Assembly: GCA_964364285.1 (NCBI GenBank)
Contig: CAYIKZ010000002.1
Span: 3,800 to 67,799, forward strand
From: an uncultured Candidatus Saccharibacteria bacterium
GTDB lineage: Bacteria > Patescibacteriota > Doudnabacteria > UBA920 > VMFF01
Direction: 5' to 3'
Length of the DNA stretch: 64,000 nt
In this document: piece by piece, positions 25,791 to 46,123 of the stretch
Layout: every line of letters begins with the position of its first letter
How positions within the stretch are numbered: the first letter of the stretch is position 1
The notes under the pieces: model-generated
Told to the model about the DNA's origin: nothing
Seen by the model: only the letters and a program-made list of their open reading frames with translations
Databases searched by the model: none
Program-made: the position numbers and the translations under genes

Positions 25791-25954
25791 ACAGTGTTAG
25801 TTGTTCCTTTATATATATTTCATCCAGCCCCCTATTTGCGAGTAGCGAAAATAGATATGAATCCCTCCTACTATTTGTAAGTAGCTGTCAAGTAAAGGTT
25901 GGCAGCGTTTGTTGTCTTCCTTTCACTCGTAAATAGGGTATTGTATGAAATATT

Positions 25955-25979
25955 AAAGCGCTTTTGCGCTTTTTTGTTT
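25955..25979 (+). terminator. Intrinsic terminator/attenuator hairpin in the leader of the GC-rich gene
   Basis: agcgc-tttt-gcgct followed by TTTTTT. No upstream plus-strand gene for it to terminate. Confidence 0.5.
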
Positions 25980-26057
25980 TTATGGTATATTGAGTTGCTC
26001 ACTCACACACGAGAGAGAGGCGCCGTGGCTAGACACGGAAGTCGAAGGAGGATTCAC

Positions 26058-26987
26058 ATGACGCATCGCGAAGTGCACTTCCGCGTGTCTGATGAAGACA
26101 TGCGGAAGATCGATGGGGTCTGGTCGAGTCTGAGAGACAAGGCTCAAAGGGGCCGTCTCCCAATCGACAAGATCATCCGGGAGCTCCAGCGTGCCAATGA
26201 AGGTCACTTCACGGCACCGCCGCTGACATACAGCGACGAGGAGTGTTCGGATGAAGAGAAGGGGATGTACAACGGAAACCACAAGCCTGCAAGCATCTGG
26301 GAGCAGGCGCAGTTCTGGAGTCGTATTCTCCCAGATGCGGACTTCTCGTATCTTGAGAAGTTCGCCGGAGGAGACCCTGATCTGTACCAGCTCGCCGAGC
26401 AGTGGGGTGTGGTTCCGAAGCCTCAGCTGCTTCGCGCTCCCGACTACTGGGGTGCCTACCAGCACCTCGTGCACACGTACTTCAGTTTGGACGGGGACTT
26501 CCCACACATCATGATGCAGTGGAGCGGTTTCATCAACGACCACAGCGACAGGCCACGTCTGACCAGGAAGACTGCTGCGTGGCATGAACGCATCACCGAG
26601 CAGACACCGGGAGACTTCCTGGTTTTCCCGTTCCAGTTCGGTGCTTTGCACGCCGGCAGATCTAGGCGCCGTGCCCAGGTTTGCTATGAGCACAACGAGA
26701 TTGGCCTCGGTCCTTACGAGGCATTGTGCTTGCTTGCAACGCATCCGAACCGGCTCGCGCAGGGCGCTCTCGGGTTCTACTGCATCGGTGCGAAGTGTGG
26801 CTGGCACAAGCGGGATCAGCAGGTTCCGAGTTCGGCGATGTATCCTAGCTGGTTCTGTCCGCGTTTCGGGTATTCCGACGTTGATCAGATAGCATTCGTT
26901 GACTGCGGCTTGCCGACGTACCAATCGAACCGCTACATTGGTTCGATCACGGCGTTCGAGTTGCCGATCGAGGAAGTCGCTGACTGA
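26058..26987 (+). CDS. Hypothetical protein encoded in GC-rich island 2 (no recognised domain)
   Basis: 309 aa from an ATG preceded by AAGGAGGA. GC-rich. The ORF-track start at 25899 lies in AT-rich leader and is rejected. Confidence 0.55.
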   Translation: MTHREVHFRVSDEDMRKIDGVWSSLRDKAQRGRLPIDKIIRELQRANEGHFTAPPLTYSDEECSDEEKGMYNGNHKPASIWEQAQFWSRILPDADFSYLEKFAGGDPDLYQLAEQWGVVPKPQLLRAPDYWGAYQHLVHTYFSLDGDFPHIMMQWSGFINDHSDRPRLTRKTAAWHERITEQTPGDFLVFPFQFGALHAGRSRRRAQVCYEHNEIGLGPYEALCLLATHPNRLAQGALGFYCIGAKCGWHKRDQQVPSSAMYPSWFCPRFGYSDVDQIAFVDCGLPTYQSNRYIGSITAFELPIEEVAD

Positions 26988-27007
26988 TCGGATCGCGTCA
27001 TTAACAA

Positions 27008-30429: not shown

Positions 30430-30506
30430 GGACGATTAGCTCAGCTGGTTAGAGCGCACCGTTCACATCGGTGAGGTCAAAGGTTCGAGTCCTTTATCGT
30501 CCACCA
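30430..30506 (+). tRNA. tRNA-Val (anticodon CAC)
   Basis: Manual fold: acceptor GGACGAT/ATCGTCC, anticodon stem CACCG/CGGTG with loop TTCACAT, T arm AAAGG-TTCGAGT-CCTTT, CCA. Confidence 0.85.
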
Positions 30507-30524: not shown

Positions 30525-31142
30525 ATGCAAACAGATCCAGAACAACAGAATACAGAAAACCAGGAAACCGAAAGCGGTTTAAAAGAGCTTGGACTTTTTG
30601 TCTGGGACTTGGTTAAGGTTTTAATAATCGCGATGGCAATAATCTTGCCGATTAGATACGCTGTAGCTCAGCCTTTCATTGTTTCCGGTTCTTCCATGGA
30701 ACCCACCTTCTATTCTGGTGAATACTTAATCATCAATGAATGGACATATCATTTCGACAATCCACAAAGAGGCGATGTAGTAGTTTTTAAATATCCTAAA
30801 GACACAAGTCAATATTTCATAAAAAGAATAATTGCATTACCTGGTGAAAGAGTTAAGATAGAGGAAGATAACGTCATTATTTACAACAAAGAACATCCAA
30901 ACGGATGGGTGTTAGATGAATCATACATTCCTTCGTCAGACACAACTCTTCCAGTAGGTGATGGTATGACAACATTGGGAAGCAATGAGTACTATGTTTT
31001 GGGTGATAATCGTTTAGCATCATCCGATTCTCGTTTCTGGGGCCCAGTTCCTAAAAATGACATCATCGGAAAAGTTTTCGTTAGAGCTTTTCCTTTCAGT
31101 GACTTAAAGAAATTTGAAACAATTGAATACGGGGTTAAATAA
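30525..31142 (+). CDS. lepB: Signal peptidase I
   Basis: TM anchor and catalytic Ser box VSGSSMEPT. The ORF-track start at 30471 overlaps the tRNA; ATG 30525 is used. Confidence 0.8.
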   Translation: MQTDPEQQNTENQETESGLKELGLFVWDLVKVLIIAMAIILPIRYAVAQPFIVSGSSMEPTFYSGEYLIINEWTYHFDNPQRGDVVVFKYPKDTSQYFIKRIIALPGERVKIEEDNVIIYNKEHPNGWVLDESYIPSSDTTLPVGDGMTTLGSNEYYVLGDNRLASSDSRFWGPVPKNDIIGKVFVRAFPFSDLKKFETIEYGVK

Positions 31143-31143
31143 T

Positions 31144-32448
31144 ATGAATATAAAGAAAAAAACAACAGTTTCTCAATCAAGCAAACCACAATCACTTCCT
31201 GGCTTAGCCGATATTATTCCAGGACAGGATAATTACTGGGATTTTGTAAGCTCTCATCTTCAAAGAATTGCTCGTGGTTATGGTTTCAACAGAATTGAAA
31301 TGCCACTCCTTGAAAATATTAGTTTGTACGCTCAAACAGAATTCGCAGAAAACAATGAAGCGGTTGATTTTGTAGACAACAGCGCAACCAAAATTGCTGT
31401 TAGAGCAGCAAGCATGCCATCTCTGATGCGTGCTTTTCATGAATACAAAATTCCGGAAGGACACAAGGTTTCAAAATGGTACTACCTGTCTCCGGTTTTA
31501 AGCTATGACCAGAAACAAAAGCAATACATTTCTTCTTGGCAATATGGTTTTGAAATGTTTGGCGAGTTTTCTCCTTTAAACGAGGTTCAGATGATTAGCT
31601 TGCTTTGGAAGTTCTTCAAAGCAATAGGTTTACAAAATGTTTCTTTGGAGATAGACAGCTTGGGTGACGAAGCTTGCAAAGGACAATACGAGGAAGCATT
31701 AACCGGATACTTACAAAGCAAGAAATATGAACTCTGCAATGATTGTGTGGCTGCAATTGAAGAGTTCCCAATGCAGGTTTTCAGATGCAACAACCTAGAG
31801 TGCAAAACCGTTGCAACAGACGCTCCACAATCAGTGGATTTCTTAGACACTGCTTGCCACAAACATCTTACAAATGTTTTAGAAGGATTAGATGAGTTGG
31901 GAATAATGTACGCGTTAAATCCAATGCTTGCTGGAAAAAAAGGAACATCTAAAACAACCTTTGCTTTCAAACACACAGAAACAACTCCAACAGGAACAGT
32001 AGACAGATTTCTAGGAGAGGGAGCATACCATGATCAGATATATAAAGAACTGACCGGTAAAAACGTGGTTTGTTTTGGTTTCCATTCAAACATTGAAAGC
32101 TTACAAAAAGCAGTTAAAGAACAAAAACAAGAACAGATTGAAACATTAGCAGCAGCAAAAGCAGAAGTTTTCTTAGCGCCACTAGGTGACCTTGCTTCAA
32201 AGAAAGCAATCAAGCTATTCTCAGAGCTTTGGGATGCACAGGTTTCAGTTCATGACCATTTTGGAGGAGAGGGAGTTAAGAACCAGCTTAAACTAGCAGA
32301 GGGATCAAAAGCCATGATTGCTTTAATCATTGGACAAAAAGAAGCTATGGATGACATGGTTATTCTAAGAGATGTTAAATCAGGAATGCAGGAAGTTTTC
32401 AGATATGATCAGATAATAGAAGAAGTTAAAAAAAGATTAGGGAAATAG
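31144..32448 (+). CDS. Histidyl-tRNA synthetase paralogue, probably catalytically inactive (HisRS-like)
   Basis: Full HisRS architecture (catalytic core, insertion domain with Cys pairs, anticodon-binding domain). Motif-2 and motif-3 arginines are replaced (LSYDQKQ..., GEGAYHD versus GGRYD). The canonical hisS is at 44798. Confidence 0.65.
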   Translation: MNIKKKTTVSQSSKPQSLPGLADIIPGQDNYWDFVSSHLQRIARGYGFNRIEMPLLENISLYAQTEFAENNEAVDFVDNSATKIAVRAASMPSLMRAFHEYKIPEGHKVSKWYYLSPVLSYDQKQKQYISSWQYGFEMFGEFSPLNEVQMISLLWKFFKAIGLQNVSLEIDSLGDEACKGQYEEALTGYLQSKKYELCNDCVAAIEEFPMQVFRCNNLECKTVATDAPQSVDFLDTACHKHLTNVLEGLDELGIMYALNPMLAGKKGTSKTTFAFKHTETTPTGTVDRFLGEGAYHDQIYKELTGKNVVCFGFHSNIESLQKAVKEQKQEQIETLAAAKAEVFLAPLGDLASKKAIKLFSELWDAQVSVHDHFGGEGVKNQLKLAEGSKAMIALIIGQKEAMDDMVILRDVKSGMQEVFRYDQIIEEVKKRLGK

Positions 32449-32449
32449 C

Positions 32450-32782
32450 ATGGAAGAATGTGTATTTTGTAAAATCGTAAACAAAGAAGAACCAACTGAA
32501 CGAATCATATTTGAAGATCAGGATTTTTTGGTTTTTCCCTCAAAGTTTCCATCAGCAGAGACACATCTTTTGTTGATCCCTAAAAAACACATTCTTTCAA
32601 TGGCACATGTTTCTGAAGAAGAAACTGACATCTTAGGGCGTTTACTTGTTCTTTCAAGAAAAATTGCTGAACTAGAAAGCATAAAAGACTACAAATTGGT
32701 TTTTAACATCGGGAAATATCTGCACGTGCCACACTTACATCTACACCTTGTTGCAGGGAATCTAGAGAACGACCGAGTCTAG
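32450..32782 (+). CDS. HIT-family (histidine triad) nucleotide hydrolase
   Basis: C-terminal HVPHLHLHLV histidine-triad motif. 110 aa. Confidence 0.85.
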   Translation: MEECVFCKIVNKEEPTERIIFEDQDFLVFPSKFPSAETHLLLIPKKHILSMAHVSEEETDILGRLLVLSRKIAELESIKDYKLVFNIGKYLHVPHLHLHLVAGNLENDRV

Positions 32783-32796
32783 CAAAGAAGAAACAG

Positions 32797-32825
32797 TGCC
32801 GCCATAACAGGGCGGCATTTTTGTT
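32797..32825 (+). terminator. Terminator
   Basis: tgccgcc-ataacag-ggcggca followed by TTTTTG. Confidence 0.55.
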
Positions 32826-32911
32826 TTAGAGAGAATTGCTCATTTGACCAAAGCCCATTTTTGGGGTATATTCATATCAGTTTTAATCAGTTTTTACATC
32901 CTTAGAAGGGG

Positions 32912-36845: not shown

Positions 36846-36915
36846 TATATGTCGCGGTACATGCCGTGATACAAGTAGGTTCACAGTCTGACACGGAGGA
36901 CTCTTGGACAAACTG

Positions 36916-37620
36916 ATGTTGCTTAACCGTATGGTGTTGGCTCTTGACGATATGGAACCGGATCAGATCGGTGAGCTGATCGCTGCACTTGCTCACAATG
37001 ATCTTCTTCCATGGTCGTTCAAGGTCAACGATCGTTGGGTCGAGAGTGGAAAGCAGACGGTACCGATGTTGCGTCTTGCGGCCGGCGGTGCTCACGTCAG
37101 GGTGCTCGCAGACCTGAAGCTCAGCGACACCCCCAAGACCATGAGCGCAAGCGCGAGGCGGGTGCGCGAGGCGGGTGCAGTTGCACTCACAATCCATGCC
37201 AGCTGCGGCCTTGATTCCATCAAGGCTGCGCTTGAGCACGGTCCAGCGGAGATCATTGCTGTGACCTTGCTCACCTCGATCAATCGGATGAACTGCCTGG
37301 CGCTCTACGGGCGTGAGCCGATTGAGCAGGTCAAGATCTTTGCCAAATACGCGCTCGAGAGCGGGGTTGGCAATCTGGTCTGCTCCGGGGAAGAAGTCGC
37401 GACGCTTCACGAGATGTACCCTGGCATCGGTCTGCTGGTTCCCGGTGTTCGTATGCCGGGTAGCGACCTTCGGGGTCAGAAGCGCATCACTACGCCATGG
37501 GATGCTTTCAACAACGGTGCAACGCGCATCGTTGTCGGAAGCGAAGTCACGATGGCGAAGGACCCAGTGGCTACGTTCGAGAATCTGCTCGCGGAAACTG
37601 AGAAGCACGTGGAGTTCTGA
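36916..37620 (+). CDS. pyrF: Orotidine-5'-phosphate decarboxylase-family protein (PyrF-like), GC-rich
   Basis: LALDD near the N-terminus, K-L-S-D-T-P-K-T (OMPDC KxxDIPNT-like) and C-terminal RIVVGSEV. ATG 36916 is used; a TTG at 36904 is possible. Confidence 0.65.
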   Translation: MLLNRMVLALDDMEPDQIGELIAALAHNDLLPWSFKVNDRWVESGKQTVPMLRLAAGGAHVRVLADLKLSDTPKTMSASARRVREAGAVALTIHASCGLDSIKAALEHGPAEIIAVTLLTSINRMNCLALYGREPIEQVKIFAKYALESGVGNLVCSGEEVATLHEMYPGIGLLVPGVRMPGSDLRGQKRITTPWDAFNNGATRIVVGSEVTMAKDPVATFENLLAETEKHVEF

Positions 37621-37640
37621 CACCAACCGGAGGAGGAAGG

Positions 37641-38336
37641 ATGATAGTAACTGGGGGAAGGTGGCAGAACGAAGCTGTGACAAGCTTCCTAGACTCCCTC
37701 TGGGCCTTTGGCGCCATCATGGGCGTCGACAAGTCGCCAGAGGGCAAGGGGTTTCGGCTTGCGCTTCACGAGCGTAACCCAGATGCCCCACTCTCGCCGT
37801 TCTACTTCAACCTGCGGCGGGTCCAGTCGCACCCGGCGACCCTGTACATGGCAGCACAGATGATGAGGGAGAAGATCATCGAGGATATTGATGGTGGTGC
37901 TTTCCAACTCATCGCCGGCATTCCAACTGCCGGTACACCGTTTTCGACAGCCTTGTCCCTGCTGATGCATCGCGGACAGGTGTCGCCGCGGATGCAGGCG
38001 AAGGGGCACGGGGTTGGTGATCTCGTGGATGGTGACTTCCATGACGGGCAGACCGTTCTGTTGGTCGACGATCTGATCACCGAGGCTGATTCCAAGCTTC
38101 GTGCGATCGACATCCTGCAGCGCGCCGGTCTCATCGTTCAGAATATCGCCGTCCTGATCGACCGGGAACAGGGCGGCAGACAGCGGCTTGAGGCTGCTGG
38201 GTACAAGGTTCACCCCGTCTTCACGGTCACTGAAGTCTTCTCCTACTACCTGGCTGCTGGTGAATCCACCCAGTCCGCCTACGACCAGATCGTGGAGTAC
38301 CTCGACCGCGAAGCCGAGAAGCACGCGAACCAGTAA
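37641..38336 (+). CDS. pyrE: Orotate phosphoribosyltransferase (PyrE-like), GC-rich
   Basis: PRPP-binding motif VLLVDDLITEADS and DREQGG. N-terminal PyrE-like flexible loop. Strong RBS GGAGGAGGAAGG. Confidence 0.75.
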   Translation: MIVTGGRWQNEAVTSFLDSLWAFGAIMGVDKSPEGKGFRLALHERNPDAPLSPFYFNLRRVQSHPATLYMAAQMMREKIIEDIDGGAFQLIAGIPTAGTPFSTALSLLMHRGQVSPRMQAKGHGVGDLVDGDFHDGQTVLLVDDLITEADSKLRAIDILQRAGLIVQNIAVLIDREQGGRQRLEAAGYKVHPVFTVTEVFSYYLAAGESTQSAYDQIVEYLDREAEKHANQ

Positions 38337-38509
38337 CAAACAATCGACAAGAGGAAAAACCGTCCCTGGAGGAGGACGGATGAAAGAAACAGGCTATGGC
38401 TCTGGTGCAGATTTTGTACCAGAGCCTGCTGTTTTTTAGTGATTGTGGATAAACTTGATTTAGTTGTTTAAAAAGGTTGAAATTATTGGATTTTTGATAT
38501 ATTTGCCTA

Positions 38510-39149: not shown

Positions 39150-42100
39150 ATGAGTGAAAACTTACAAATCAGAACCAAGAACGCACTATCCGAACTCGGA
39201 GAAAAAATCTTTCTAGATCGTTATGCAGTTAAAGATGCTAAAAAAGAAACATTGGCAGTAGGAGATACTGTTGTCATCAATGTTAATTTAAAAACAGGAC
39301 AGAGAGAAATTGGAACAGTTAAGGAAGTTGATAGGTTTAGCAAACAAGTAGAAGTAACCTTGCGCGATGGCACAGTAGAGAAACGCGCAATAGAGCATGT
39401 AGACAAACCTTTGGAAACAGTTCCTGAACAAATGTTTGAGCGCATAGCTCGTCATATTGCAAGCGTTGAGAAAACTCCAGAAAAACAAAATGAATGGCAG
39501 GGGAAATTTAGAGAACTAATGGATGACTGGAAATATGTTCCAGCAGGAAGAATCTTTACTGGTGCAGGAACCGGTCAAAACCTAACTTTTTACAACTGCT
39601 ATGTCATACCATGTCCTCAGGATTCTCGTGGTGGTATTTTTGACACACTCAGACAAATGGCAGAAATCATGTCCCGAGGGGGCGGTGTTGGTATAAACGT
39701 ATCTACGTTGAGACCAAGATACGCATATGTTAAAGGTGTTAATGGAAGATCCTCTGGTTCTGTTTCCTGGGCTTCTTTGTATAGCTTTGTTACAGGTTTA
39801 ATTGAACAGGGTGGTTGTTTTGGACCGAATGAAAGAATTGCAACCAATGTTGGTTTGGTTCCTGCAAAAGAATTGGCTGACCGTGTTGAAGCAGGTGAAG
39901 CAATATACGCCCAAACCCATAAAGGTATGCGCCGAATAACAGCTAAATTCAGAAATGGCGTGAAAGAACTTTATGAAGTAACAACTGAGCGTGGATTTAG
40001 CACCGAGATAACAGCAGATCATAAGGTTGCAGTACTATTAAACGGCCGAGTTGAAACAACTGCTTTAAAAAATTTGAAGCAAGGAGACGACATCTTGTTG
40101 TTGCTTGGCAATGCTACTGGTCAAAATTATGTGTCGCTTAAGAAAAGTGATTACAAGCGTTCTGTAATGAGTACGACCTTAAATACTGATGTTCGTCTTC
40201 CTGAAATGCTCAATGAAGATTTGGCATACCTTGTTGGATATATGTTGGGTGATGGATATGTGAGTTGGGGTAAAAAAGTAAATTGGTCTGCTCCTAAAGC
40301 TGTTAAAATGGCAACCGCCGATGCATACCCTGAAATTCGTCAGAGAATTGTTGATGCGATCCAAAATCTTTTTGGTGTTGATGCAGTAATTGAAAAAGGC
40401 GACGGTGCTTGCCAAAACGTTTCTTTGTATTCTCGCATTGTAATTGAGTGGCTCTTAGAAAATGGTTTACTCAAATCTAAAGCAAAAGATATTCGTGTGC
40501 CAGAAAGCATTTTTCGCTCACCGACCAGCGTGACTGGGTCATTCATAGCCGGGTATTTTGACGCTGACGGTTGCAACCGTGGAGCAAAGGGTGGTTATGG
40601 TATTGACAGCATAAGTCGTGAAATGCTCACAGACGTGCAACAGCTTTTAGCTGCAAACGGTGTCTTGTCTGCTATTCGTGCAACTGATCGAACAGAACAA
40701 GGTTGGCAAACAATCTATCGTTTAAGTGTTACTGGAAATCAATTTAAAGAGCGTTTTGCGGATTTGGTTTCTACTGCCAAGCGTTCTGACTTCAATGGCA
40801 AGCGCGATATGTTTAATACTTACCCGTCAGAAATTTTAGCTGCTGTCGGTGTGCGTAGCAAGGACCGTCAGGGAATCTATGATGGCACATCTCCGCAGGT
40901 TTCTTTTAATCAACTTGTACACATCCAAAAACGTTTGAATACTGTCGAACAATATTCTGCCGCCCAATATCTTGATGACATCATGCACACCATTCCTGAC
41001 ACGATTACCGCAATCAAATCGGTTGGTAAAAGCGATGTTTATGACTTTGAGGTTGAAGATGTCCATTTGCTCAGCGGTGGTGGTGTTTACACTTCAAACA
41101 GCAGAAGAGGCGCTTTAATGCTCATTCTAAACGTTTGGCATCCTGATATTGTTGATTTCATTAATGCAAAGAGAGAAGCTGGAAAAATAACTAACGCGAA
41201 TATTTCTGTTGGTATTACTGATGATTTTATGGAAGCAGTTAAAAATGATGCTGACTGGGATTTGGTTTTCCCAGACACATCAGATCCTTTGTATCAATCA
41301 GAGTGGGCTGAGACACAAGGTGATATTAAAGCATGGCAAAAACTTGGTGGTAAAGTCGTTGTTCATAAAACAATGAAAGCAAAAGAAATCTGGGATCAAA
41401 TCATTTCCTCAGCATGGTCTTCAGCAGAACCTGGTGTTTACTTCATTGATCGCGCAAACTATCTTTCAAATTCTTACTACTACGCAGCATTGCCTTGTAC
41501 CAATCCTTGTGGTGAACAACCACTTCCTGCTTGGGGTGTTTGTAACCTAGGACATGTTAATCTTGCAAAACATCTTACAAACAATGAAGTTGATTGGCAG
41601 AAATTAAAAGAAACAGTAAGATACGCAGTTCGTTTCCAGGACAATGTCATAGATGCAACACCATACTTCTTTGATGAGAACTTTAAACAACAAATGTCTG
41701 AAAGAAGAGTTGGTATGGGAACAATCGGACTCGCAGAAATGTTAATTAAATTAAGAATTAGATATGGCAGTGATCAAGCAATTCAATTCATCGACAAACT
41801 ATATCAATTCATTGCAGTTACATCTTACGAAACATCAGTAGAAATCGCTCGTGAAAAAGGATCTTTCCCTCAATTTGATGCTGAAAAATTCTTAGAAAGC
41901 GGATACATGAAAGCAATGCCTGAATATATTCGTTCATTAGTAAGACAATACGGTGTAAGAAACGTAACAATAATGACTCAGGCACCAACTGGAACAATCG
42001 GAACAATGGTTGGAACATCAACAGGAATTGAACCATTCTTCTCATGGACATACTTTAGAAAGAGCAGACTTGGTGTTCATGAAGAAAAGATTAAACTAGC

Positions 42101-43106
42101 TCAAGACTGGTTGGATCAAAATCCAGGACAAGAACTTCCAGAATACTTTGTTACTGCAATGAGCCTTGCTCCTGAAGACCACGTTAGAGTTCAGGCAGCA
42201 GTTCAACGTTGGACAGACTCAGCAATTTCAAAGACCTGTAATGCCCCTTCAAACTACACTGTAGAAGACACTAAAAAGCTATACCAGATGATGTATGACC
42301 TTGGTTGCAAAGGTGGAACCATTTACCGTGATGGTTCAAGAGATGAACAAATCTTAGCAACAGATGCAAAGAACCTTGGTAAAGATGTTCAGGAACAACT
42401 AGAGGCAAAAGCAAAGATTGAAACACAAGTAACTCAAATTGTTCAAGAAGGACAAGATCTCTTACAAATTGGTGACCACAAGTTCTTGGTTAAAAAACTC
42501 ATTCAAAACGGAACTAAATTTGAAGTTGTACCAAGGGAACGTCCAATTGAGATGCAAGGAACAACATACAAATTAAATACGCCGTATGGTTCGCTCTTTG
42601 TAACCATAAACGAAGATGAGCATGGACCATTTGAAGTCTTTGCACAGCTTGGTAAAGCTGGTGGTTTTTTCGCAGCTCAATCAGAAGCTCTATGCAGAAT
42701 GATTTCCTTAAGTTTAAGATCAGGCGTTGCTGTAGAGGAAATAATCAAACAGTTGAAGGGAATTAGAAGTACTGAGGTTGCATTTAACCAAGGCGAGATA
42801 ATTTATTCATTGCCTGATGGTATTGCAAAGACCATGGAAAAGCACATCAATCGCAAACAGCAAAGCTTACAACTCCAATTCAAACAAGCAGAACCAGCAA
42901 AACTCGATTTAAAAGAAGAAGTCAAAATGACAGTTTCAGAAGGACCGGTAGAAGTAAGTTCTGTTGCGGAGTTTCAGCCTAAACAACAAAAGGTTTCAAT
43001 GGCAGACTATGGTCATGCGCCGGTTTGTCCAGATTGTTCTTCAATGCTTGTTATGGCAGAGGGATGTATGAAATGTGATGTCTGCGGATATTCTAAGTGC
43101 GGTTAA
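39150..43106 (+). CDS. nrdJ: Ribonucleotide reductase, adenosylcobalamin-dependent (class II-like), containing an intein
   Basis: RNR catalytic motifs (NPCGE, C-terminal CxxC...CxxC tail). nrdR is upstream and a cobalamin adenosyltransferase gene downstream. 1318 aa including the intein. Confidence 0.85.
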   Translation: MSENLQIRTKNALSELGEKIFLDRYAVKDAKKETLAVGDTVVINVNLKTGQREIGTVKEVDRFSKQVEVTLRDGTVEKRAIEHVDKPLETVPEQMFERIARHIASVEKTPEKQNEWQGKFRELMDDWKYVPAGRIFTGAGTGQNLTFYNCYVIPCPQDSRGGIFDTLRQMAEIMSRGGGVGINVSTLRPRYAYVKGVNGRSSGSVSWASLYSFVTGLIEQGGCFGPNERIATNVGLVPAKELADRVEAGEAIYAQTHKGMRRITAKFRNGVKELYEVTTERGFSTEITADHKVAVLLNGRVETTALKNLKQGDDILLLLGNATGQNYVSLKKSDYKRSVMSTTLNTDVRLPEMLNEDLAYLVGYMLGDGYVSWGKKVNWSAPKAVKMATADAYPEIRQRIVDAIQNLFGVDAVIEKGDGACQNVSLYSRIVIEWLLENGLLKSKAKDIRVPESIFRSPTSVTGSFIAGYFDADGCNRGAKGGYGIDSISREMLTDVQQLLAANGVLSAIRATDRTEQGWQTIYRLSVTGNQFKERFADLVSTAKRSDFNGKRDMFNTYPSEILAAVGVRSKDRQGIYDGTSPQVSFNQLVHIQKRLNTVEQYSAAQYLDDIMHTIPDTITAIKSVGKSDVYDFEVEDVHLLSGGGVYTSNSRRGALMLILNVWHPDIVDFINAKREAGKITNANISVGITDDFMEAVKNDADWDLVFPDTSDPLYQSEWAETQGDIKAWQKLGGKVVVHKTMKAKEIWDQIISSAWSSAEPGVYFIDRANYLSNSYYYAALPCTNPCGEQPLPAWGVCNLGHVNLAKHLTNNEVDWQKLKETVRYAVRFQDNVIDATPYFFDENFKQQMSERRVGMGTIGLAEMLIKLRIRYGSDQAIQFIDKLYQFIAVTSYETSVEIAREKGSFPQFDAEKFLESGYMKAMPEYIRSLVRQYGVRNVTIMTQAPTGTIGTMVGTSTGIEPFFSWTYFRKSRLGVHEEKIKLAQDWLDQNPGQELPEYFVTAMSLAPEDHVRVQAAVQRWTDSAISKTCNAPSNYTVEDTKKLYQMMYDLGCKGGTIYRDGSRDEQILATDAKNLGKDVQEQLEAKAKIETQVTQIVQEGQDLLQIGDHKFLVKKLIQNGTKFEVVPRERPIEMQGTTYKLNTPYGSLFVTINEDEHGPFEVFAQLGKAGGFFAAQSEALCRMISLSLRSGVAVEEIIKQLKGIRSTEVAFNQGEIIYSLPDGIAKTMEKHINRKQQSLQLQFKQAEPAKLDLKEEVKMTVSEGPVEVSSVAEFQPKQQKVSMADYGHAPVCPDCSSMLVMAEGCMKCDVCGYSKCG
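39816..41099 (+). mobile_element. Intein with a LAGLIDADG homing-endonuclease domain inside nrdJ
   Basis: Begins with Cys after ...EQGG. Two LAGLIDADG motifs (LAYLVGYMLGDGYV, FIAGYFDADGC). Block G VYDFEVEDVHLL...VYTSN, followed by the extein SRRGALM. Confidence 0.75.
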
Positions 43107-44797: not shown

Positions 44798-46123
44798 ATG
44801 AAATTAATAGAACCACGAAATCTAAAGGGCTTCAGAGACTATCTGCCAACAGATCAGATTCCAAGAGCCATCATGTTTTCAAAAATCAAAGCAGTCTTTG
44901 AGCGTTTTGGGTTTGAGCCATTAGAAACGCCTGTTTTAGAATATGAGGATATTCTAGCTGGTAAATATGGAGTTGAAGGCGAGAAACTAATGTATCGCTT
45001 CAAAGACAATGGTGAAAGAGATGTTGCCATGCGATATGACCTAACAGTTCCACTAGCAAGAGTTTCAGCTCAATACCAAAACGAACTTCCAAAACCTTTC
45101 AAGAGATATCAGATTGCTCCAGTGTGGAGAGCAGAGAATACACAAAAAGGAAGATATCGCGAGTTCTATCAATGTGATGTTGATGTTGTTGGAGCACCTG
45201 CTGGTGTTGCAGATGCTGAATGTATTGCTATGGTAGAACAGATTTTCTTAGAGCTGGGTATAAAGAAATTTGTTGTTAAAGTAAACAACAGAAAAATATT
45301 GAATGCGATAATGCTGACAGCAGGGGTTTCAGAAGACAAGATACTAGATGCGATAAGAGCCATAGACAAGTTGGATAAGGTTGGAGCAAAAGCAGTTGTT
45401 TTAGAACTAAAAGAAAAAGTTGGATTAAGCTTAAACGAAGCTGAAGGCTTAATTACCCTTGCTTCAACAAAAGTTCCTGATATTGGTGCCCTAAAAGCAT
45501 TCATAAACAAATACATCCTTAAACAACCTCAAGGACAAGAAGGCTTTGATGAACTAAACAGTGTTTTTACAGCCTTAAAAGCTTTTGGAATAAAAAACGT
45601 TGAGATTGATCTTTCATTAGCTCGTGGTCTTGATTACTATACTTCGACAATCTTTGAAACAATCATTACTGAAACAGTAGACTCCAGAAAATATGGTTCA
45701 GTAGCTGGTGGTGGTAGATACGACAAATTAATCAAGCTTTTTACAGGCAAAGATGTTCCTGCTGTTGGTATTTCAATTGGTATTGATCGTTTGTTTGCAG
45801 CAATGGAAGACCTTGGTTTAGTTAAAAAACAAGGCATTGTTTCAGTATTGGTCTTAAACATGGAAGAATCTCTTCAAAAAGGATACTTAAAGATTGTTTC
45901 AGACTTGAGAAAAGCTGGTATTAATTCAGAGTTTTACTATATTCCTTCAGAAATGAAAAAGCAGTTTGCTTTTGCAGAAGCAAAAAACATCCCATATGGA
46001 ATACTTTTTGGTTTAGAAGAAGCAAAAAAAGGAACAGTTACCTTAAGAGACTTAAAAACAAGAAAACAAAAGACCGTTAAACAAAAAGACCTTCCAAAGG
46101 AATTAAAAAAACTTTTAAAATAG
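44798..46123 (+). CDS. hisS: Histidyl-tRNA synthetase
   Basis: Intact class II motifs: FRYE...GRYREFYQ (motif 2) and GGGRYD (motif 3), plus a C-terminal anticodon-binding domain. Confidence 0.95.
   Translation: MKLIEPRNLKGFRDYLPTDQIPRAIMFSKIKAVFERFGFEPLETPVLEYEDILAGKYGVEGEKLMYRFKDNGERDVAMRYDLTVPLARVSAQYQNELPKPFKRYQIAPVWRAENTQKGRYREFYQCDVDVVGAPAGVADAECIAMVEQIFLELGIKKFVVKVNNRKILNAIMLTAGVSEDKILDAIRAIDKLDKVGAKAVVLELKEKVGLSLNEAEGLITLASTKVPDIGALKAFINKYILKQPQGQEGFDELNSVFTALKAFGIKNVEIDLSLARGLDYYTSTIFETIITETVDSRKYGSVAGGGRYDKLIKLFTGKDVPAVGISIGIDRLFAAMEDLGLVKKQGIVSVLVLNMEESLQKGYLKIVSDLRKAGINSEFYYIPSEMKKQFAFAEAKNIPYGILFGLEEAKKGTVTLRDLKTRKQKTVKQKDLPKELKKLLK

Follow-up and report, generated by a model that had tools for sequence, protein, structure and literature searches.

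The window (the whole 64,000 nt stretch of DNA that was analysed) encodes, in addition to a working histidyl-tRNA synthetase (HisRS), a full-length HisRS-like protein of 434 aa that lacks the catalytic residues of the enzyme and is designated here the pseudo-synthetase. This protein is probably the product of the ancestral hisS, catalytically dead and kept as a non-charging protein that would bind tRNA-His via the anticodon. The features of the locus are listed below.

30430-30506, + strand: tRNA-Val(CAC), found with ARAGORN and Rfam; neighbour on the 5' side of the unit formed by lepB and the HisRS-like gene.
30525-31142, + strand: lepB, signal peptidase I (Pfam Peptidase_S26, 1.4e-46).
31144-32448, + strand: HisRS-like pseudo-synthetase, 434 aa, with class II core, insertion domain and anticodon-binding domain (ABD).
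31492-31563, + strand: degenerate motif 2, residues 117-140, PVLSYDQKQKQYISSWQYGFEMFG, located by alignment to E. coli and S. aureus HisRS.
31735-31803, + strand: Cys4 cluster of the insertion domain (C198, C201, C215 and C220), invariant in A1.
31927-31953, + strand: relic of the HisA motif, LAGKKGTSK (compare LVRGLDYY), located by alignment.
32014-32034, + strand: GEGAYHD, residues 291-297, a family-specific sequence in place of the HisB motif GGRYD.
32077-32103, + strand: relic of class II motif 3, GFHSNIESL, located by alignment; E. coli R311 is replaced by S319.
32164-32445, + strand: ABD, the best conserved part of the protein.
32332-32394, + strand: segment G397-E417, GQKEAMDDMVILRDVKSGMQE, containing E400, R409 and Q416.
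32450-32782, + strand: Hint-type HIT hydrolase, 110 aa (Pfam HIT), with HLHLHLV at residues 95-101.
32795-32819, + strand: terminator-like hairpin (9-bp stem, 6 GC, T-rich tail; consensus scan only) that ends the unit of lepB, paralogue and HIT genes.
44798-46123, + strand: working HisRS of eukaryote/archaeal-like type (TIGR00442, 413.8 bits), catalytic residues all intact.

The stop codon of lepB and the ATG of the pseudo-synthetase gene are separated by 1 nt (TAA-T-ATG). The longest ORF for lepB begins at GTG 30471 but runs into tRNA-Val(CAC), a gene also found 5' of lepB in 26 of the 40 related loci scanned. Among loci with enough upstream sequence, lepB lies upstream on the same strand in all cases, both where the HisRS-like gene is degenerate (104/104) and where it is intact (17/17). 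At the other end, the stop codon had been thought to overlap the start of the HIT gene, but the sequence reads GGG AAA TAG C ATG, a spacer of 1 nt, and in relatives this spacer is mostly 1-150 nt and up to about 480 nt. The hairpin downstream of the HIT gene suggests a single operon. A promoter-like site at 32844-32872, ahead of rpsU, was predicted by consensus scan only. An Rfam scan of the odd region at 25.5-27.2 kb gave no match.

The pseudo-synthetase has the complete architecture of a HisRS, as the initial annotation had proposed. Pfam models tRNA-synt_His (2.8e-22, residues 20-320) and HGTP_anticodon (1.2e-09, residues 341-431) both match, and the best matches in the PDB are bacterial HisRS structures (1qe0, 2.5e-45; 1kmm, 5e-40), with which the protein aligns end to end. 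An AlphaFold model (pLDDT 84.8) was used for a structure-based comparison, and the best Foldseek matches were again bacterial HisRS (4rdx, 4e51, 1qe0 and 1kmm). The three-part architecture of core, insertion domain and HGTP anticodon-binding domain, the predicted fold and the end-to-end alignment are shared with bacterial-type HisRS from S. aureus (1QE0), E. coli (1KMM) and T. thermophilus (4RDX). The four cysteines of the insertion domain, likely to form a Zn knuckle, occur together in 37 of the 38 degenerate representatives and in 48 of the 56 intact ones. However, the score against the HisRS equivalog model TIGR00442 is below the cutoff (201.8 versus 286.75 bits). Database labels for the family vary between hisS, HisZ and hypothetical.

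Degeneracy was judged against E. coli and S. aureus HisRS and is described here using E. coli numbering. In motif 2, R113, R121 and R123 are replaced by S120, Q127 and I129 of the pseudo-synthetase, and E83 and T85 by A and M. The HisA arginine, R259, is paired, according to the alignment used, with a gap, a G or an A, and in none with Arg, and the tyrosine pair Y263/Y264 has been replaced by G-T. GGRYD has become GEGAYHD, which contains no Arg whatever register is chosen for the alignment. Among the motif residues listed, only E131 (E137) and Q127 (Q133) are kept, and contacts to the acceptor end and G-1 (R9, R116 and R123) have also been lost. Alignment therefore showed that the catalytic arginines are all gone. 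The loss of arginines from motif 2 and motif 3 had been noted previously; both are indeed missing, but GGRYD, which had been taken for motif 3, is the HisRS-specific histidine-B motif, and the motif-3 arginine sits in GxGxGxER. With the ATP, histidine and acceptor-end contacts lost, neither formation of histidyl-adenylate nor aminoacylation would be expected. Compared with bacterial-type HisRS, the pseudo-synthetase keeps motif 1, the Cys-containing insertion domain, the anticodon-contact residues and the genomic slot, whereas the catalytic residues of motif 2, HisA, HisB and motif 3 and the G-1/acceptor contacts are absent.

The initial annotation also identified the gene at 44798 as the canonical hisS, and its product scores well above the TIGR00442 cutoff (413.8 versus 286.75 bits). 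The best PDB matches of this working HisRS are 6nhi, human cytoplasmic HisRS and 3net. It is encoded 12 kb away from the pseudo-synthetase and the two proteins are only 22% identical. By sequence, they belong to different deep lineages, the pseudo-synthetase to bacterial-type HisRS and the working enzyme (type 2) to a eukaryote/archaeal-like form. A recent duplication of the window's hisS is ruled out by the identity of 22% and the different PDB lineages, and the catalytic motifs of the two proteins differ. An orthologue of the type-2 HisRS was seen directly 4-10 kb 3' of the pseudo-synthetase gene in at least 13 related genomes, and a further 12 cases of co-occurrence are implied by contigs of the same length.

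The pseudo-synthetase gene stands at X in the gene order LytR-lepB-X-[HIT]-rpsU-yqeY-ftsA-ftsZ, where other Patescibacteria have an intact HisRS. The P0129 locus has the arrangement lepB-HisRS-HIT with 8 of 8 catalytic residues in the HisRS, and the P0141 locus has Pth-Der-LytR-lepB-HisRS-S21...ftsA-ftsZ with 7 of 8 (T85 is S). A HisRS with 8/8 residues intact occupies the slot in 27 metagenome loci. Because the slot holds an intact HisRS in other Patescibacteria, the pseudo-synthetase can be understood as the ancestral hisS that degenerated in place. It is a positional orthologue of that gene and not the second or extra aaRS copy it was first taken to be. Displacement by the type-2 HisRS would account for the decay. 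A neighbour-joining tree, constructed without support values, is only suggestive of multiple independent degenerations.

In the degenerate family constraint on the catalytic core is relaxed and that on the ABD is not. Mean column conservation is 0.79 in the ABD and 0.55-0.67 in the other domains. Pairwise identity between degenerate representatives is 0.44 in the ABD versus 0.21-0.22 in the core, and this relationship is reversed in intact representatives (core 0.45-0.50, ABD 0.29-0.41). E400, R409 and Q416 do not vary in any of the 120 members, although the proteins are only 40-66% identical, and the E-R-Q triad was found in 153 of 161 loci. These residues are the equivalents, at a constant +3 offset, of E388, K397 and Q404 in T. 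thermophilus HisRS, which read G34, G36 and U35 of the anticodon, respectively (PMC4357726). The anticodon makes only a modest contribution to aminoacylation by the T. thermophilus enzyme (PMC4357726). Conservation of this kind makes binding of tRNA-His the likeliest mechanism, and the earlier suggestion that the protein was retained for this purpose fits these observations, in which the ABD is the best conserved domain and the equivalents of the GUG contacts are invariant. Affinity and binding mode may differ from those of HisRS, as the acceptor-end contacts have been lost. Alternatively, G397-E417 could be so extremely invariant because it forms a protein-protein interface. No tRNA-His gene was found among the 84 tRNAs in the 2.04 Mb made up of the window and related loci.

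If G397-E417 did serve as an interface, the protein might be a regulatory or scaffolding subunit resembling HisZ, with ATP-PRT or another enzyme as its partner and tRNA irrelevant to its role. HisZ typically lacks the ABD, pairs with a short HisG and is encoded in his operons. Both HisZ and the pseudo-synthetase are non-aminoacylating HisRS paralogues under selection, some members of the family are named 'ATP phosphoribosyltransferase regulatory subunit' by NCBI, and there are weak matches to HisZ models. However, the match to TIGR00443 is 71 bits against a cutoff of 271.65 and all NF0089xx HisZ models are far under their cutoffs, the ABD is present, and no HisZ structure ranks among the 50 closest folds. 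Across about 160 loci the gene is flanked by lepB, HIT and rpsU and never by his genes. The protein's HMM scores, ABD and genomic neighbourhood rule out identity with HisZ, in agreement with the initial annotation, and a HisZ-like role for a protein that is not HisZ is considered unlikely. Patescibacteria are largely without amino-acid biosynthesis, and a search of 2.04 Mb of related DNA, comprising neighbourhoods only, with an approximate E. coli HisG query gave no match to hisG, which is a weak indication.

A second explanation, to which we give the same low weight, is that the pocket was remodelled around E137 and the motif that replaces GGRYD, acquiring a new ligand or catalytic function, perhaps together with the HIT protein on a nucleotide or adenylate-like compound. 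The replacement, with the family consensus E-G-[GA]-Y-H-[DE], shows strong conservation: of 120 members, 111 have the E, 115 the G and 119 the H. The equivalent of E131 is invariant within the window's subfamily. Yet the pocket differs between degenerate subfamilies, all of which conserve the ABD: in the others, E131 is replaced by Q, F, Y, A or V, and the HisB sequence is GGHAD, GGN[YF][ST] or GGR[VH]x. The arginines with which class II enzymes bind ATP are missing, at positions that are not conserved across 120 relatives (R113 is K, S, V or T; R121 is K, Q, R or A; R311 is V, K, A or T).

The HIT gene bears on the same explanation. Its product matches Pfam HIT (53.7 bits, cutoff 21.5) and DcpS_C (75.2 bits), with all NCBIfam HinT equivalogs under cutoff, and the catalytic H-x-H-x-H-x-x motif is intact as HLHLHLV; of the HIT genes at this position in 101 cases, 96 retain the motif. 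The gene adjoins the window's subfamily in 68 of 71 loci and is absent beside the other degenerate subfamilies, and the single operon suggested by the hairpin would also favour a joint function. However, HIT also lies directly 3' of the intact slot HisRS in 16 of the 21 loci with enough downstream sequence. The proposal that HIT is tied to the pseudo-enzyme is thus not sustained; since the gene follows intact HisRS and is missing from whole degenerate subfamilies, the adjacency is inherited and dispensable. A role in anti-phage defence was not supported either: the paralogue had no PADLOC match and HIT only a weak generic match to the HIT family.

That the pseudo-synthetase is a divergent but still active HisRS, providing redundant charging, is very improbable. 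It has the complete architecture and fold, and members are called histidyl-tRNA synthetase by JGI, but the residues known to bind ATP, the adenylate and the histidine alpha-amino group are all replaced at positions that vary in the family, the score is under the equivalog cutoff and an intact HisRS is encoded nearby. The distribution of the paralogue, examined as the initial annotation had advised, includes at least 80 species-level genomes, with all 80 of 80 species-level genome loci degenerate, and peptides of the family's ABD occur in up to 425 genomes. Purifying selection on the gene is strong, with dN/dS of 0.031-0.038 compared with 0.042-0.087 for neighbouring housekeeping genes. A functionless decaying pseudogene, of which loss of catalysis after functional replacement is the expected appearance, is hardly credible given a reading frame intact in 80/80 genome loci, this dN/dS of about 0.03, an ABD that is invariant across proteins 40-66% identical, and retention in streamlined genomes.

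The explanation preferred here, a catalytically dead ancestral hisS product that reads the anticodon of tRNA-His, can be set out as follows. The bacterial-type hisS would have stayed in its original place between lepB and (HIT-)rpsU while the type-2 HisRS at 44798-46123 took over charging of tRNA-His. The old enzyme would then have lost its contacts to ATP, histidine and the acceptor end (G-1), while keeping its HisRS fold, its Cys4 insertion domain and, most notably, the GUG-reading ABD. The result would be a dimeric, non-catalytic protein that binds tRNA-His at the anticodon arm and does not charge it, with a proposed role in handling, buffering or sensing tRNA-His. The HIT gene would be a co-transcribed neighbour inherited from the era of the active hisS, and not a demonstrated partner.

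Other class II synthetase folds have been put to related uses. SLIMP, a SerRS-like protein of insect mitochondria, and POLG2, the class IIa aaRS-like accessory subunit of DNA polymerase gamma, are non-catalytic proteins that bind nucleic acids or partners. They differ from the pseudo-synthetase in parent synthetase and in organism, and their partners are known. The HisRS-like domain of Gcn2 binds uncharged tRNA (PMC11363354, PMC4335047). Like the pseudo-synthetase, it is a repurposed full-length HisRS-like pseudoenzyme with an anticodon-binding-type domain, in which synthetase activity has been lost. The Gcn2 domain is part of a multidomain eukaryotic eIF2-alpha kinase, whereas the pseudo-synthetase is free-standing at 434 aa with no effector domain, is derived from a bacterial-type enzyme, and has an ORF of its own between the stop codon of lepB and the start codon of HIT. 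No description of a patescibacterial HisRS-like pseudoenzyme, or of a free-standing bacterial HisRS-like protein with an ABD, was found in the literature searched, in which few subscription journals were covered.

Dead aaRS paralogues are already represented by HisZ and the HisRS-like domain of Gcn2; what lost catalysis here, probably once a second type of HisRS was present, is the resident gene and not a spare copy. Speculatively, and with only slightly more confidence than is given to a HisZ-like role, Patescibacteria may have repeatedly turned the ancestral HisRS into a free-standing, non-catalytic reader of tRNA-His, a bacterial counterpart of the Gcn2 sensor. Such a reader would track tRNA-His (for example, how far it is charged or how much of it an auxotrophic episymbiont has available) or buffer it, with an input to the control of translation or growth. 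It may have arisen several times independently across the radiation. A single slot that holds intact, partly degenerate and fully degenerate proteins provides a natural series for studying the passage from enzyme to pseudoenzyme, and the mixed annotation of these genes (hisS, HisZ, hypothetical) can lead metabolic reconstruction astray, as well as the aaRS counts used for genome completeness. Retention under selection as strong as that on ftsA and lepB, in genomes that shed dispensable genes, implies that there may be an unrecognised tRNA-His-centred function in a large uncultured radiation.

The HisRS-like pseudo-synthetase is full-length, with Pfam matches to tRNA-synt_His (residues 20-320) and HGTP_anticodon (residues 341-431), and S. 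aureus and E. coli HisRS align with it end to end (2.5e-45 and 5e-40). An identical protein is present in a public collection (P0001), and the window matches locus L001 at 100% identity, on JBBTQQ010000005.1 of the Patescibacteria MAG H41-bin257_1. The gene and the features downstream of it are:

31144-32448, + strand: HisRS-like pseudo-synthetase ORF, 434 aa from ATG
32450-32782, + strand: Hint-type HIT protein, 110 aa, HLHLHLV intact (ORF and motif)
32795-32819, + strand: GC-rich hairpin of 9 bp with a T tract, 3′ of HIT (consensus scan only)

The initial annotation had the pseudo-synthetase stop overlapping the HIT start, but the junction reads GGG AAA TAG C ATG, leaving one base between them, and the junction with the upstream signal peptidase gene, lepB, has the same geometry (TAA T ATG). 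Because the hairpin follows HIT and a promoter-like site precedes rpsU, both from a consensus scan only, lepB-pseudo-synthetase-HIT looks like a single transcription unit in the window genome. A tRNA-Val(CAC) gene at 30430-30506, just 5′ of lepB, recurs in 26 of the 40 related loci; since the lepB ORF in its longest form (GTG 30471) runs into it, the true start is probably ATG 30525.

Elsewhere in the window, pyrF (36904-37620, for OMP decarboxylase) and a gene for a phosphoribosyltransferase (37641-38336) lie within a stretch of ∼50% GC (36900-38340; genome ∼37% GC) whose other strand carries long spurious ORFs; the stretch could be of foreign origin or simply of unusual composition. An intein bearing a LAGLIDADG homing endonuclease (Pfam Intein_splicing, LAGLIDADG_3) interrupts the large subunit of ribonucleotide reductase (1318 aa, 39150-43106). 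At 25900-27000 (∼47% GC), each strand has an ORF of ∼1 kb, encoding 362 aa (+) and 314 aa (-); neither product matched Pfam, and Rfam gave no match at E≤0.1.

Residues were mapped on E. coli HisRS using HMMER pairwise alignments and a MAFFT alignment of 120 family members, with the numbering rechecked. In the pseudo-synthetase E83 is replaced by A, T85 by M, motif-2 R113 by S120, and loop R121 and R123 by Q127 and I129. In HisA, R259 is deleted and Y263/Y264 are G/T, and HisB GGRYD has become GEGAYHD, with Arg absent in every alignment register. GGRYD had been described as motif 3 and is in fact the HisRS-specific histidine-B motif; the claimed loss of Arg from both motifs nevertheless holds, the motif-3 Arg proper (R311, within GxGxGxER) being S319. 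Across the 120 relatives the former Arg positions vary (R113 = K/S/V/T, R311 = V/K/A/T), and the acceptor/G-1 contacts (E. coli R9, R116 and R123) are also missing from the pseudo-synthetase. The proposal of a full-length but catalytically degenerate protein is therefore upheld, no alignment to E. coli HisRS having recovered the catalytic arginines, and judged from these replacements aminoacylation is very probably impossible.

The gene had also been regarded as a second aaRS copy. Duplication of the window hisS (44798-46123) is ruled out, as the two proteins share 22% identity and belong to different HisRS types: the pseudo-synthetase is closest to bacterial-type HisRS (1qe0, 1kmm), and the intact hisS to the eukaryote/archaeal-like type (6nhi, human cytoplasmic HisRS, 3net), here called type-2. 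The anticodon-binding domain (ABD) alone (32164-32445) matches the human cytoplasmic HisRS ABD at 34.5 bits, slightly above S. aureus HisRS (27.4 bits), sharing SELWDA, NQL, IIG[EQ]xE and EE[IV]K[KR]R.G with the human protein, whereas the catalytic part is clearly of bacterial type. An exhaustive representative search returned 423 clusters below 1e-30, and among the best 150 of these, classified at eight catalytic positions, 60 were intact and 84 degenerate to varying degrees. The ABD signature GQKE...RD...G.QE is common to the family and about half of those intact clusters, which points to patescibacterial type-1 (bacterial-type) HisRS, from sources named Uhrbacteria and 'Patescibacteria group', as the nearest active relatives.

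Gene order in the window is LytR(LCP)-tRNA-Val-lepB-X-HIT-rpsU-yqeY-ftsA-ftsZ, where X is the pseudo-synthetase. The same slot holds a HisRS with 8/8 catalytic residues in 27 metagenome loci and at P0129 (Pth, lepB-HisRS-HIT), and one with 7/8 (T85 = S) at P0141 (Pth-Der-LytR-lepB-HisRS-S21...ftsA-ftsZ). In loci with enough sequence, lepB is 5′ of the HisRS gene in 104/104 degenerate and 17/17 intact cases. By position, the pseudo-synthetase is thus orthologous to the ancestral hisS rather than a second copy. In at least 13 related genomes a type-2 HisRS is encoded 4-10 kb 3′ of it in the same orientation, with 12 further pairings suggested by contigs of equal length, and we infer that this type displaced the old enzyme. 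In same-contig pairs the degenerate protein is always the more diverged; in the 12 length-matched pairs, the degenerate protein is 47-63% identical to the window protein, versus 55-77% for the type-2 enzyme. A crude NJ tree, which carries no support values, suggests one large fully degenerate clade, places several partly degenerate lineages among intact ones, and hints at repeated decay of HisRS across the radiation.

In the window's subfamily, which retains E131 and carries the motif E-G-[GA]-Y-H-[DE], 68 of 71 genome loci have HIT 3′ of the pseudo-synthetase, usually after a spacer of 1-150 nt, which would suit a residual HIT link confined to this subfamily or a pocket that gained a new function with HIT. 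However, HIT also follows intact slot-HisRS in 16/21 loci, and whole degenerate subfamilies (Q131/GGHAD; F or Y131/GGN[YF][ST]; A or V131/GGR[VH]x) lack it, the HisRS-like gene leading straight to rpsU. The active hisS locus therefore already had HIT as its neighbour, and the pairing is dispensable, which argues against the earlier view of HIT as a partner specific to the pseudo-enzyme. Catalytic histidines are kept in 96/101 of the neighbouring HIT genes, so HIT presumably has a function of its own. Intact hisS-hit pairs (e.g. L165 3300-4988; L136, L142, L144, L147, L149, L159, L162, L163) could reflect a genuine HisRS-HIT functional link, such as adenylate hydrolysis, that does not involve the pseudo-enzyme. 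The degenerate subfamilies without HIT, at least three besides the window's own, occupy the lepB-X-rpsU slot in metagenome and look-up loci (L081, L083, L085-L108, L114-L119, L129-L131), and partly degenerate forms also occur, e.g. P0128 (ETRKKYRE). Because the ligand pocket varies between degenerate subfamilies while the ABD does not, a common function is more likely to be ABD-centred than pocket-centred.

A dead relic would accord with the lost catalytic residues, but the frame is intact in all 80 best species-level genome loci, 425 genomes match the family's ABD peptides, and dN/dS is 0.031-0.038 (against orthologues of 96% and 91% identity), compared with 0.042 for HIT, 0.044 for ftsA, 0.048-0.070 for lepB and ∼0.087 for yqeY. 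Mean column conservation within the family is highest in the ABD (0.79, versus 0.55 in the N-terminal core). Among 50%-identity representatives, intact HisRS have core identities of 0.45-0.50 and ABD identities of 0.29-0.41, and degenerate proteins 0.21-0.22 and 0.44, the inverse of real enzymes. These patterns indicate that the pseudo-synthetase is maintained and that the maintained part is the ABD.

In the T. thermophilus HisRS-tRNA-His complex, E386-E388 read G34, K397/K399 G36 and Q404 U35 (PMC4357726). At a constant +3 offset these contacts correspond to E. coli E391, K400 and Q407 and to pseudo-synthetase E400, R409 and Q416, which are invariant in 120/120 members, as is almost all of the segment holding them (G397-E417); the E-R-Q triad was found in 153/161 loci examined. 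The insertion domain carries four invariant cysteines (CxxC...CxxxxC, 31735-31803), and their retention by most recovered type-1 relatives, intact and degenerate alike, suggests a structural zinc site.

Database names for family members are inconsistent (hisS, HisZ, 'HisS family protein', hypothetical). A HisZ-like scaffold is disfavoured: as the initial annotation held, the protein is unlike HisZ, scoring below the HisZ cutoff, possessing an ABD and having no his genes beside it in about 160 loci, and the fold predicted by AlphaFold (pLDDT 84.8) is that of full-length bacterial HisRS, 4rdx matching best, with no HisZ structure among the top 50 fold matches. Residual activity is very improbable, as the protein falls outside HisRS both by TIGR00442 (201.8 bits, under the 286.75 cutoff; window hisS, with all catalytic residues, 413.8 bits) and by its catalytic residues. 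Closest in its predicted mode of action is the HisRS-like domain of Gcn2, a tRNA-binding pseudo-HisRS that includes an ABD-type domain; unlike it, the pseudo-synthetase is stand-alone, bacterial and derived from a bacterial-type enzyme, and hence not a member. No description of a patescibacterial HisRS-like pseudoenzyme was found in the full-text literature searched, and we place the protein among the aaRS-derived pseudoenzymes.

The functional reading is drawn throughout from sequence. Binding of tRNA-His through the anticodon is modestly favoured: a dimeric, non-charging protein would hold the anticodon arm, with buffering, protection or sensing as candidate downstream roles. On this reading, the most likely one, the pseudo-synthetase is a relic of the ancestral synthetase, retained once a second HisRS took over charging.
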